This document shows, in pieces, positions 3,150 through 3,736 of a stretch of 5,648 nucleotides of DNA. Source of the DNA: a virus; the IMG/VR virus record IMGVR_UViG_3300045988_006862, positions 1 through 5,648 of that record, one strand, 5' to 3'. The stretch's first letter is position 1. Every line of letters starts with the position of its first letter. Below the pieces are notes generated by a model. It was given only the letters and a program-made list of their open reading frames with translations. It did not search any database and was not told where the DNA came from. Position numbers and translations under genes: made by a program.

Positions 3150-3162
3150 TTGGTGTCACCTA

Positions 3163-3200
3163 GCCCAGTACCTATCAAGTAAGGTACTGGGCATTATTAT
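3163..3200 (+). terminator. Hairpin downstream of Rep, candidate weak intrinsic terminator
   Basis: GCCCAGTACCT (3163-3173) pairs with AGGTACTGGGC (3182-3192) as a perfect 11-bp stem around the 8-nt loop ATCAAGTA. It is followed by the T-rich but interrupted ATTATTATTCT and begins 14 nt after the VP4 stop. Confidence 0.5.
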
Positions 3201-3206
3201 TCTAAT

Positions 3207-3256
3207 CGCGCACACGCGTACACGCGAAAACTACACGCGCACGCGTGCGCACGTAT
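3207..3256. repeat. Two alternating pyrimidine-purine tracts built of CACGCG repeats, with a 14-bp perfect palindrome
   Basis: Strict Y-R alternation runs over 3207-3226 (20 nt, CGCGCACACGCGTACACGCG) and 3232-3256 (25 nt). CACGCG occurs at 3213, 3221, 3234 and 3240. The palindrome GCGCACGCGTGCGC (3237-3250) is followed by the AT palindrome TATTATAATA (3254-3263). Confidence 0.85.
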
Positions 3257-3292
3257 TATAATATAACTTGTTGTAGTCGTAGTAGTAGAGTA

Positions 3293-3457
3293 TGTGGAAA
3301 AGTTGAAAAGTATAATTTTAAAACGTTAGAGCGTAAAAAAACAAACAAAATCAATGTTGAAAGATTTGTTGAAAACTTGTTGAATTGTTGAAACACTCTA
3401 TTGTGCTAAAGTTTAACAATGTTGAAATGTTGAAAACTATGTGGAAAATGTTGAAAA
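3293..3457 (+). repeat. Array of 11 same-orientation TGT(T/G)GAAA(A) iteron-like repeats (DnaA-box-like on the complement)
   Basis: Copies: 3293 TGTGGAAAA, 3302 GTTGAAAA, 3355 TGTTGAAAG, 3367 TGTTGAAAA, 3378 TGTTGAAT, 3386 TGTTGAAAC, 3402 TGTGCTAAA, 3420 TGTTGAAAT, 3428 TGTTGAAAA, 3440 TGTGGAAAA, 3449 TGTTGAAAA. The complement TTTTCCACA fits TTWTNCACA, and TTTTCAACA is one mismatch away. An AT-rich tract (3311-3354) separates copies 2 and 3. Confidence 0.85.
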
Positions 3458-3495
3458 GCAAATAGAAGCAATCCGGAATCAAACGGGAAAGCCAG

Positions 3496-3542
3496 GGCCG
3501 CGCTTCGCTGAAAGTTGCGCCGCGTAGCGCGCAACAGCGGCC
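3496..3542 (+). other. GC-rich compound hairpin in the non-coding region (possible ssDNA structural or origin element)
   Basis: The outer stem is GGCCGC (3496-3501) paired with GCGGCC (3537-3542). The inner stem is GTTGCGC (3514-3520) paired with GCGCAAC (3529-3535) around an 8-nt loop CGCGTAGC. An alternative CGCG-TAG-CGCG fold is possible. This is a GC island within an otherwise A/T-rich region. Confidence 0.55.
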
Positions 3543-3636
3543 ATCTAATGAAAAATTCTGCAAAAGACTTGACAATTGTAAAGAAATCAAGACAAAGGAT
3601 TAACCAGCTGGAAAAAGAAAACAAACTTATGTGGTA

Positions 3637-3664
3637 TTGACAAAAAAGCAAGACATGATATAAC
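3637..3664 (+). promoter_or_regulatory. Sigma70/sigmaA-type promoter P1 (TTGACA - 16 nt - TATAAC, preceded by an extended -10 TG)
   Basis: -35 TTGACA (3637-3642), a 16-nt spacer, extended -10 TG (3656-3657) and -10 TATAAC (3659-3664). The predicted start near 3671 runs directly into the terminator hairpin at 3671-3701. Confidence 0.6.
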
Positions 3665-3670
3665 AAAGAC

Positions 3671-3701
3671 AAAAACCGGAGTTGACAACTCCGGTTTTTT
3701 T
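3671..3701 (+). terminator. Canonical intrinsic (rho-independent) terminator hairpin, potentially bidirectional
   Basis: AAAAACCGGAGTT (3671-3683), loop GAC, AACTCCGGTTTTT (3687-3699) form a 13-bp perfect stem with a CCGGAG/CTCCGG core. A run of 7 T (3695-3701) follows, mirrored by a 5' A-tract. Confidence 0.75.
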
Positions 3702-3709
3702 GATATAAT
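3682..3709 (+). promoter_or_regulatory. Consensus sigma70/sigmaA promoter P2 (TTGACA - 16 nt - TATAAT, preceded by an extended -10 TG) driving the peptidase gene and downstream genes
   Basis: -35 TTGACA (3682-3687, centred on the terminator hairpin loop), a 16-nt spacer, extended -10 TG (3701-3702) and a perfect -10 TATAAT (3704-3709). It lies 28 nt upstream of ATG 3737 and its AAGGAG RBS. Confidence 0.75.
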
Positions 3710-3736
3710 AAAAAATAGAAGAAGGAGAAAAACGCC

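Follow-up and report, generated by a model that had tools for sequence, protein, structure and literature searches.

Introduction

The rolling-circle origin of the microvirus phiX174 is a 30-nt sequence, CAACTTG|ATATTAATAACA-CTATAGACCAC, located at positions 4299-4328 and cut between G4305 and A4306. In bacterial chromosomes, a basal unwinding system has been described that comprises tandem DnaA boxes, a short spacer, at least three DnaA-trios (3'-GAT-5') and AT-rich DNA (PMC8287927, PMC6669920), with the trios located within 16 bp of a box (PMC8287927), and in oriC2 of C. difficile the order is boxes, CACC, CTACTACTATTACTACTA and the DNA unwinding element (DUE) (PMC7561715). Moreover, enterogokushoviruses carry a 28-bp XerC/XerD dif motif for integration in their non-coding DNA (Kirchberger and Ochman, 2020; PMC7062461). 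Here we describe the interval at positions 3150-3736 of a viral DNA stretch of 5,648 nucleotides (IMG/VR record IMGVR_UViG_3300045988_006862, positions 1 to 5,648; hereafter the window), which lies between the gene of the replication protein VP4 (Rep) and that of an M15 peptidase/endolysin. The window corresponds to a single circular microvirus genome, 5593 nt long, with ends overlapping by 55 nt (1-55 repeated at 5594-5648), and every gene is on the + strand. On balance, its sequence and its relatives indicate that the interval probably controls replication and transcription in a gut gokushovirus and contains two different candidate origins: a phiX174-like hairpin on the non-coding strand (module A) and a module that resembles the chromosomal origins (oriC) of Clostridia (module C), with two alternating CG/CA tracts between them (module B). 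In the literature searched, with older subscription papers outside it, we found no description of antisense packaging in the Microviridae, of a gokushovirus origin hairpin, or of DnaA boxes and oriC-like modules in microviruses.

Organization of the interval

The 587-nt interval runs from the VP4 stop codon (3147-3149) to the peptidase start codon at 3737 and makes up 10.5% of the 5593-nt circle, as the initial annotation had reported. Its elements, in the order of the + strand, are the following.

3152-3162, - strand: TAGGTGACACC box, starting 12 nt 3' of the predicted nick; presumed binding box of Rep (VP4); module A
3163-3192, - strand: candidate origin hairpin with a perfect 11-bp stem and an 8-nt loop, z = -4.7; module A
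3207-3226 and 3232-3256: two alternating CG/CA tracts with AAAAC between them; module B
3254-3273, + strand: AT-rich stretch TATTATAATATAAC, candidate unwinding element, followed by ACTTGTTG, in columns about 90% or more conserved; module C
3274-3288, + strand: DnaA-trio-like repeats TAG TCG TAG TAG TAG, the three box-proximal TAGs being invariant; module C
3289-3309, + strand: 4-nt spacer AGTA and tandem DnaA-box-like TGTGGAAAA and GTTGAAAA, the boxes at 3293-3309; module C
3355-3394, + strand: second box cluster, four copies of TGTTGAAn starting at 3355, 3367, 3378 and 3386; module C
3420-3457, + strand: third box cluster, with starts at 3420, 3428, 3440 (TGTGGAAAA) and 3449; module C
3459-3580: GC-rich segment with a hairpin at about 3495-3541, moderately conserved and found in 10 relatives
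3637-3664, + strand: promoter-like TTGACA, 16 nt, TGaTATAAC, a sequence reading in a zone that varies among relatives
3671-3699: perfect 14-bp palindrome flanked by A/T runs, z = -7.4, resembling a bidirectional terminator
3682-3709, + strand: sigma-70/sigma-A promoter TTGACA, 16 nt, TGaTATAAT, 12/12 consensus with a TG extension
3721-3727, + strand: Shine-Dalgarno sequence GAAGGAG, ahead of the ATG at 3737

Alignment with close microviruses was based on 56 IMG/VR relatives with the interval available and a VP4 83-94% identical to that of the window (57 sequences with the window in the VP4-retrieved set). All 56 relatives have a VP4-peptidase gap at the same position, 407-994 nt long, and at least 66 gut gokushovirus genomes in GenBank have the same unannotated block behind VP4. 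Median nucleotide identity was 84% for the first 310 nt (3150-3458) versus 80% for the VP4 gene, and conservation fell toward the 3' end, being moderate at 3459-3580 and giving way to a variable zone in the promoter-proximal 150 nt. The region had been called oversized, which applies in comparison with the 4.1-4.7 kb gokushoviruses but not inside its own clade, where a gap of this size is normal; it is therefore not a recent insertion, as had been suggested, and the presence of the oriC-like module in microviruses whose VP4 proteins are 38-94% identical also speaks against a recent acquisition.

The absence of a + strand open reading frame (ORF) of 60 aa or more was confirmed, the longest being 50, 48 and 41 aa. 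An unrecognised or degraded protein-coding gene, or an assembly chimera with bacterial DNA, might nevertheless be suspected, as the minus strand holds ORFs of 113, 79, 66 and 46 aa and module C looks like bacterial chromosomal DNA. Both explanations are hardly credible, given that the ORFs of both strands lack Pfam and PHROG family matches and are interrupted by stop codons in almost every relative, that the same architecture recurs in GenBank genomes of several studies and in over 120 independent circular microvirus contigs, and that the best host match is only about 68-78% identical, hence no contamination. Searches for Rfam families and tRNAs returned nothing significant in the gap, blastn of the region against 72,556 plasmids gave no match that could indicate a plasmid donor, and no dif-like XerD arm was seen by eye, no formal search having been made. 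The interval can thus be described as concentrated cis-acting, non-coding DNA. Among the functions proposed in the initial annotation, a rolling-circle origin, transcription control and host-factor binding were retained and a complementary-strand origin was disfavoured, and of its five element classes the hairpin, the alternating purine/pyrimidine tracts, the repeat array and the promoter/palindrome composite stood; the GC-rich hairpin at about 3495-3541 folds no better than composition-matched shuffles (z = -0.8).

Candidate rolling-circle origin

The 43 nt directly behind VP4 (3150-3192) have matches in very distant microviruses of 4.1-4.7 kb that come from sea squirts, bees, blackflies, birds and methane-seep sediment, and the origin element was found in 97 GenBank phage records, mostly Microviridae. 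The heptamer ACTTGAT occurs once in the genome, on the minus strand, in the loop of the hairpin, which reads TACTTGAT on that strand. The pattern CTTGAT-N8-14-TAGGTGACACC matched at least 119 IMG/VR contigs; the box is invariant within the clade, while its invariance across these contigs was demanded by the search pattern itself. In Chlamydia phage Chp2 the element is present on the coding strand, with the box as TAGGTGATAGC. The end of the loop is always ACTTGAT, followed by the 3' arm of the stem and then by TAGGTGACACC, and the stem varies in a compensatory manner: 123 unique versions contained 48 distinct 3' arms, each complementary to its own 5' arm, with a mean perfect stem run of 8.9 nt compared with 4.5 nt in the permuted control, in which flanks were swapped between genomes.

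The gokushovirus element, TTACTTG|ATAGGTACTGGG-CTAGGTGACACC, has in common with the phiX174 + strand origin the nick core ACTTG|ATA, a CTA..GAC.AC box located 12 nt past the nick (TAGGTGACACC here and CTATAGACCAC in phiX174), and a cognate Rep with HUH and YxxxY motifs that is encoded in cis. VP4 carries the HUH motif and the tyrosine pair YVAGYVTKK, in which the two tyrosines are four residues apart, as are Tyr343 and Tyr347 of phiX174 gpA. On the other hand, the 12-nt spacer is here the 3' arm of a conserved hairpin, whereas in phiX174 it is AT-rich; the element lies in non-coding DNA, whereas the phiX174 origin is inside gene A (rep); and the motif of the window is on the strand opposite to the genes, unlike the positive-sense origin of the phiX174 type, where it is on their strand. 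Given the shared core and the 12-nt box distance, ACTTG|AT in the loop is the predicted VP4 nick site, with the cut on the minus strand falling after the G opposite 3176 and before the A opposite 3175, and the hairpin is very probably the Rep origin. The initial annotation had described the hairpin, whose fold was confirmed, and had missed its identity as a family-wide, phiX174-like origin on the non-coding strand. The predicted substrate of VP4 would be 5'-CCTTACTTGATAGG-3' and not the complementary strand, and within CCTTACTTGATAGGTACTGGGCTAGGTGACACC cleavage would be expected after ACTTG, leaving the complement uncut.

The same hairpin, followed by AUUAUUAUU in the + strand RNA, probably also ends the transcript of VP4 or a single genome-length transcript, and the terminator scan flagged 3163-3192 followed by AUUAUUAUUC, though the T-rich tail is interrupted. 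It could be argued from this T-rich tail and from the position directly behind the VP4 stop codon that the hairpin acts solely in transcription termination or as a complementary-strand origin, the coding strand being packaged as in all characterised microviruses, which are described as positive-sense, and nucleotide skew reflecting host codon usage. We consider this unlikely. An invariant loop with an asymmetric flanking box, retained across the subfamily in both orientations, is not expected of a terminator, and both the loop and the box match the phiX174 origin. Besides, even if the element acts on the packaged single-stranded DNA, its inversion still means that the other strand is packaged.

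Hairpin orientation and packaged strand

The orientation of the hairpin was surveyed in 118 non-redundant microvirus genomes with the origin element. The motif was found on the coding strand in 98 of them (sense class) and on the other strand in 20 (antisense class), and the AT and GC skews at the third codon position of the coding strand (AT3 and GC3) were as follows.

Sense class, 98 genomes: AT3 from -0.75 to +0.21, median -0.27; GC3 mostly positive
Antisense class, 20 genomes: AT3 from +0.41 to +0.77, median +0.45; GC3 from -0.07 to -0.50

The AT3 values of the two classes showed zero overlap (Mann-Whitney U = 0, p = 2e-12), and in both classes the strand bearing ACTTGAT is T-rich and C-poor. 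The values of the phiX174 viral strand (-0.45), Chp2 (-0.28) and SpV4 (-0.24) all fit the sense class. The antisense orientation was found in at least five unrelated lineages, namely the clade of the window, L148/L149/L182, L138, L084 and L129, whose nearest capsid or Rep relatives are sense genomes with AT3 lower by 0.4-1.0. Moreover, AT3 was at least +0.30 in 120 of 120 microvirus contigs with the oriC-like module, and none of the 85 hairpins detected in these contigs was sense-oriented.

A T-rich and C-poor bias is, we infer, the expected product of cytosine deamination on a strand that is at times single-stranded, and in the simplest reading the hairpin sets which strand is displaced and packaged. 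Since the motif of the window is on the strand complementary to the genes, the displaced, circularised and packaged strand would be the antisense one, and it appears likely from orientation and skew that this phage packages its non-coding strand. Skew that flips together with the element in at least five unrelated lineages, across varied habitats and GC contents and against close sense relatives, is difficult to attribute to host codon usage with a hairpin acting only in termination.

Two observations weigh against this interpretation. The isolated gokushovirus phiMH2K (L205, NC_002643), a Bdellovibrio phage, has an antisense-like skew (AT3 +0.38, GC3 -0.49), and its sole ACTTG-loop hairpin (3297-3336, loop GGACCCTACTTGTTGTAA) is on the coding strand and is not accompanied by the TAGGTGACACC box. 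Skew is therefore not set by the hairpin element alone, and phiMH2K, which shows that an antisense-like skew is possible without an antisense-oriented element and in this respect favours the terminator explanation, is either an exception to the orientation-skew rule or a variant of it. In addition, AT3 is mildly positive in some sense genomes, where it reaches +0.21, which indicates a contribution of host codon usage as well.

The sense genomes closest to the antisense lineages, L175, L177 and L170, have intermediate AT3 values of +0.07 to +0.21, which would fit recent flips that fall short of equilibrium, and L175 also has paired CG/CA tracts. The origin-hairpin pattern was also matched by L116, a large "viral" contig of 46 kb.

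The oriC-like module

On the + strand, module C has the order TATTATAATATAAC, TTGT, trios, AGTA, TGTGGAAAA-GTTGAAAA and two more box clusters, 5'-TAG-3' corresponding to 3'-GAT-5', and TGTGGAAAA being the reverse complement of TTTTCCACA, one mismatch off TTATCCACA. At least three trios thus stand near a box and the boxes are tandem and face the trios, a polarity shared with oriC2 of C. difficile and the DUE-R1 region of E. coli. Three or more TAG repeats followed by a spacer of exactly 4 nt and a box were present in 53 of 57 sequences (56 relatives and the window). The motif TGTKGAAA occurs eight times within 3293-3456, always on the + strand, against 0.56 occurrences expected, and none of 200 shuffles reached eight; with the variants AGTTGAAA at 3301 and TGTTGAAT at 3378 the array comprises about 10 copies, slightly fewer than the 11 counted initially. 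The AT-rich run extends for only 13-14 nt (3254-3267) ahead of the GC-rich module B, and in the relatives the 30 nt located 5' of the trios are 57-73% AT.

The signature TAGTAGTAG-N2-6-TGTKGAAAAGTTGAWAA (26 bases) was scanned against 185,579 species genomes, where about 0.001 matches would be expected by chance according to our rough estimate. It matched 16 bacterial contigs, all chromosomal, and 15 of the 16 belong to Clostridia or other Bacillota, including Oscillospiraceae, Ruminococcus flavefaciens, Lachnospiraceae and Butyrivibrio. Fifteen matches lie 55-120 nt from the start of dnaN; for the sixteenth (L226) the fetched locus stops short of dnaN, and dnaA flanks the match. The dnaA gene was found on the opposite side in 11 of the 16 contigs, that is, in all loci reaching far enough, and the identities of dnaA and dnaN were confirmed with Pfam for the examples tested. 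The pair of tandem boxes TGTGGAAAA/GTTGAAAA, together with the trios and the spacer, is identical in the 16 bacterial contigs. Furthermore, the dnaA-dnaN gap of the Oscillospiraceae and Ruminococcus loci holds 20-40 copies of TGTKGAWA in both orientations, with almost none elsewhere, which identifies the motif as the origin box of these bacteria. The spacing is shared as well, since a second cluster begins 66-67 nt past the trios in the window (66), in three other phages and in 11 of 14 host origins mapped. The best whole-module identity to a host was 68% over 188 nt and 77% over 94 nt; such modest identity indicates old capture or tight mimicry and not contamination. One matching locus, L219 (JAHFUG010000054.1, positions 6348-6377), comes from a metagenome-assembled genome labelled Blastocatellia and has a Clostridia-style arrangement of dnaA, unwinding module and dnaN despite this Acidobacteriota label; either the contig is mis-binned or the signature is more widely distributed.

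Taken together, these comparisons suggest that 3254-3457 is a copy or a mimic of a chromosomal origin of the clostridial dnaA-dnaN type. Firmicute oriC, of which B. subtilis incC (boxes 6 and 7, trios, AT-rich 27-mer) and C. difficile oriC2 are examples, likewise has like-oriented tandem boxes, a short spacer and three or more trios next to AT-rich DNA, which is here a short candidate unwinding element; the extra box clusters on the side of the tandem boxes away from the trios and the polarity are the same, and the signature and box spacing are those of the dnaA-dnaN regions of Oscillospiraceae, Ruminococcus and Lachnospiraceae. Unlike firmicute oriC, which stands beside dnaA and dnaN, the module lies between VP4 and the peptidase gene of a 5.6-kb single-stranded DNA phage, its AT-rich part is about 13 nt long and abuts the alternating CG tracts, an additional ACTTGTTG is conserved, and the second (dnaA-upstream) cluster is absent. 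The octamer ACTTGTTG, located at 3266-3273 and again at 3375-3382, separates the AT-rich stretch from the trios in all phage copies of the module and in no host origin; it is similar to the core recognised by Rep and to the loop of phiMH2K, and it may represent a second Rep site.

The signature was found in 95 IMG/VR contigs, nearly all of them microviruses of 4.2-6.1 kb, with VP4 38-94% identical to that of the window. The module is inverted in L045, L067 and KT264801, and in KX513864 and KT264784 it is both inverted and located between VP2 and VP4. The initial annotation had called the repeats iterons, and short direct repeats near a nick hairpin, beside the rep gene, are indeed the arrangement of CRESS-DNA stem-loops with iterons and of the pMV158 rolling-circle origin, in which a nic locus is joined by a distal repeat locus (PMC1851628). 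On this model the repeats would bind a phage protein (VP4 or VP5), as the pMV158 "bind" locus or CRESS-like iterons do, and would position Rep at the nick hairpin, which we regard as quite improbable. Iterons are expected to co-vary with their own initiator and to keep a fixed orientation and distance to the nick or unwinding site, but the core motif is constant across VP4 proteins only 38-94% identical, the same motif, spacing and attached trios fill clostridial dnaA-dnaN regions, several genomes carry the array inverted or at another place with respect to the hairpin, and the 4.1-4.7 kb gokushoviruses have the hairpin without the repeats. A module that is free in orientation and position, and whose motif stays constant while Rep diverges, points instead to a host factor acting on the double-stranded replicative form (RF), and argues both against Rep iterons and against a strand-specific complementary-strand origin; the latter was disfavoured for module C because the module is invertible relative to the nick hairpin. 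Function in either orientation and at two genomic positions, as these arrangements suggest, would be expected of an autonomous element on double-stranded DNA.

Module C can thus be expected with good confidence to engage host DnaA, and the question is what would follow from such binding. One alternative is that the module serves only as a decoy, comparable to datA or "inc" sites, which drains DnaA to block host initiation. About ten boxes per genome multiplied by many RF copies, a short AT-rich stretch and the lack of the second (dnaA-upstream) cluster would agree with such a role, and regions of B. subtilis oriC with DnaA boxes are inhibitory to growth when carried on plasmids. A pure decoy, however, has no need of trios, a 4-nt spacer, tandem polarity and an AT-rich flank, which are conserved in 53 of 57 sequences, nor of the host-like positional layout that has been retained, and we judge it unlikely, on a par with or slightly below the terminator explanation of the hairpin. 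That the trios, the spacer and the AT-rich flank have been conserved speaks for genuine unwinding and not for titration alone, although titration would be an inevitable side effect of a multicopy RF. Whether module C is an unwinding or replication origin and not only a sink is, on this sequence evidence, evenly balanced.

Several points weigh against an active origin. The AT-rich stretch of about 13 nt is far shorter than host unwinding elements, and the firmicute origins so far studied are bipartite and require a second box cluster upstream of dnaA. Most boxes (TGTTGAAAA) deviate from the canonical DnaA box at a normally conserved position, and binding of DnaA to TGTTGAAAA-type boxes in these hosts is suggested only by their clustering at oriC. 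Besides, the model leaves module B and the conserved ACTTGTTG unexplained.

Other readings of the repeats were set aside. Canonical DnaA boxes alone did not suffice, only two of about ten copies being within one mismatch, and the assignment became convincing after the trios, the host oriC matches and the positional map. Spo0A boxes (TGTCGAA) were rejected because all copies and relatives have T or G, and none has C, at the fourth position of the motif. The AACTTGTTG repeats were disfavoured as the true + strand nick site, as skew follows the orientation of the hairpin and not that of module C; the second AACTTGTTG copy is a box-box junction that is found in hosts too. A box-pair hairpin at 3384-3420 was rejected because its stability is not above that of shuffled sequence.

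Clustered DnaA boxes through which a mobile replicon engages the host initiator are also a feature of P1 oriR, pSC101, F and datA. In P1 oriR, pSC101 and F, however, a few DnaA boxes are joined to iterons of the own initiator of the replicon, whereas here a whole host unwinding module, trios included, stands beside a separate rolling-circle origin. Similarly, the resemblance to pMV158 and CRESS elements is superficial, and the repeats differ from theirs in that they match host origin boxes, ignore Rep divergence and have no fixed orientation or distance to the hairpin. The dif region of enterogokushoviruses (Kirchberger and Ochman, 2020; PMC7062461) offers a parallel, with a host-mimicking site in gokushovirus non-coding DNA that recruits a host protein and serves persistence, the host system mimicked here being replication initiation.

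Outside the microviruses, the 6.3-kb IMG/VR contig L306 has, at about position 5090 on the minus strand, a module of AT-rich DNA, TAGTAGTAG, spacer and TGTTGAAAAGTTGAAAA with box clusters; this viral contig has no microvirus genes, one ORF is ligase-like, and oriC mimicry may thus occur in other phages of Clostridia. The signature was also matched by L281, a large "viral" IMG/VR contig of 140 kb.

Alternating CG/CA tracts

The alternating purine/pyrimidine tracts described initially were found at 3207-3226 and 3232-3256 and are prone to Z-DNA or cruciform formation; as single-stranded DNA, module B folds into one long hairpin (-21 kcal/mol, z = -3.4). Of 121 microvirus contigs with the oriC-like module, 103 have such a tract at most 120 nt 5' of the trios, usually abutting the AT-rich end. 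A tract on the 5' side of the nick motif, at a distance of 18-160 nt, was present in 82 of 87 antisense genomes, the unrelated L084 among them. Among the sense genomes, 7 of 98 have tracts, and these are far from the hairpin. The near-palindromic tracts could mediate the module inversions observed.

Transcription signals and remaining genome

The 3' part of the interval contains the promoter/terminator composite that had been noted initially and was confirmed here. The palindrome overlaps the -35 element of the promoter at 3682-3709, and its U7 tail would fit an intrinsic terminator well. A comparable promoter is present in the last 220 nt of the gap in 34 of the 57 sequences, and a conserved TTGACA was found at 3569-3574, inside the GC-rich segment. 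This variable 3' part would supply sigma-A-type promoters for the gene block from the peptidase to VP4, and these promoters, the palindrome and the strong Shine-Dalgarno sequence fit a firmicute host.

The genes of the window, all on the + strand, are as follows.

Up to 1277, wrapping around the genome ends: VP1
1318-2133: VP2
2130-3149: VP4 (Rep), matching PF23343 and phrog_942
3737-4120: M15 peptidase/endolysin
After the M15 peptidase in the gene list and ahead of VP5: three small ORFs
4574-4816: VP5
4809-5204: VP3

Further hairpins were observed within the gene blocks. Inside the 5' end of the VP4 gene, at 2183-2217, a terminator-like hairpin AGCGGGCG...CGCCCGCT is followed by TTTTCTC and coincides with a weak, sub-threshold Rfam match (Termite-leu, E = 0.003); it may attenuate Rep expression. 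Two GC-rich hairpins with T-rich tails on the + strand, one at 1290-1307, just past the VP1 stop codon and overlapping the VP2 ribosome-binding region, and the other at 4827-4849, in the 5' end of VP3, resemble internal terminators or attenuators.

Implications for microvirus biology

Judged from sequence, conservation and comparison with described origins, the two candidate origins could act as follows. VP4, a two-tyrosine HUH enzyme of the phiX174 gpA type, would bind the TAGGTGACACC box and nick ACTTG|AT in the loop of the hairpin, and the antisense strand would be displaced, circularised and packaged, yielding a "negative-sense" microvirus. On the double-stranded RF, host DnaA would bind roughly ten TGTKGAAAA boxes, spread from the tandem pair over the TAG trios and melt the short AT-rich stretch. 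The opened module would recruit the helicase-loading machinery of the host and allow Rep-independent (theta-type or plasmid-like) replication or maintenance of the RF, with DnaA being soaked up by the module as a side effect. The complete picture, in which the gut gokushovirus clade, whose hosts are probably Clostridia of the Oscillospiraceae or Lachnospiraceae type, and several unrelated lineages package the strand complementary to mRNA and the gut clade has captured a working host origin that could make its RF a DnaA-driven mini-chromosome, carried like a plasmid and independent of the rolling-circle Rep, is offered tentatively and falls somewhat short of an even call.

For the Gokushovirinae, the most abundant group of single-stranded DNA phages, whose rolling-circle origin had not been defined so far, the hairpin and its box are a concrete candidate and tie this origin to the classical one of phiX174. 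If the reading of strand polarity is true, polarity varies within the Microviridae, overturning the positive-sense rule, with consequences for the preparation, quantification and annotation of single-stranded DNA viromes, and a simple sequence rule predicts the packaged strand. Moreover, for these uncultured phages module C could serve as a sequence-based host predictor that points to Clostridia with TTTTCAACA-type oriC boxes. Carrying the architecture of host oriC, DnaA-trios included, would be a novel means by which a very small virus exploits the host initiator, and the oriC-like module could plausibly explain how microviruses persist in the gut over long periods.

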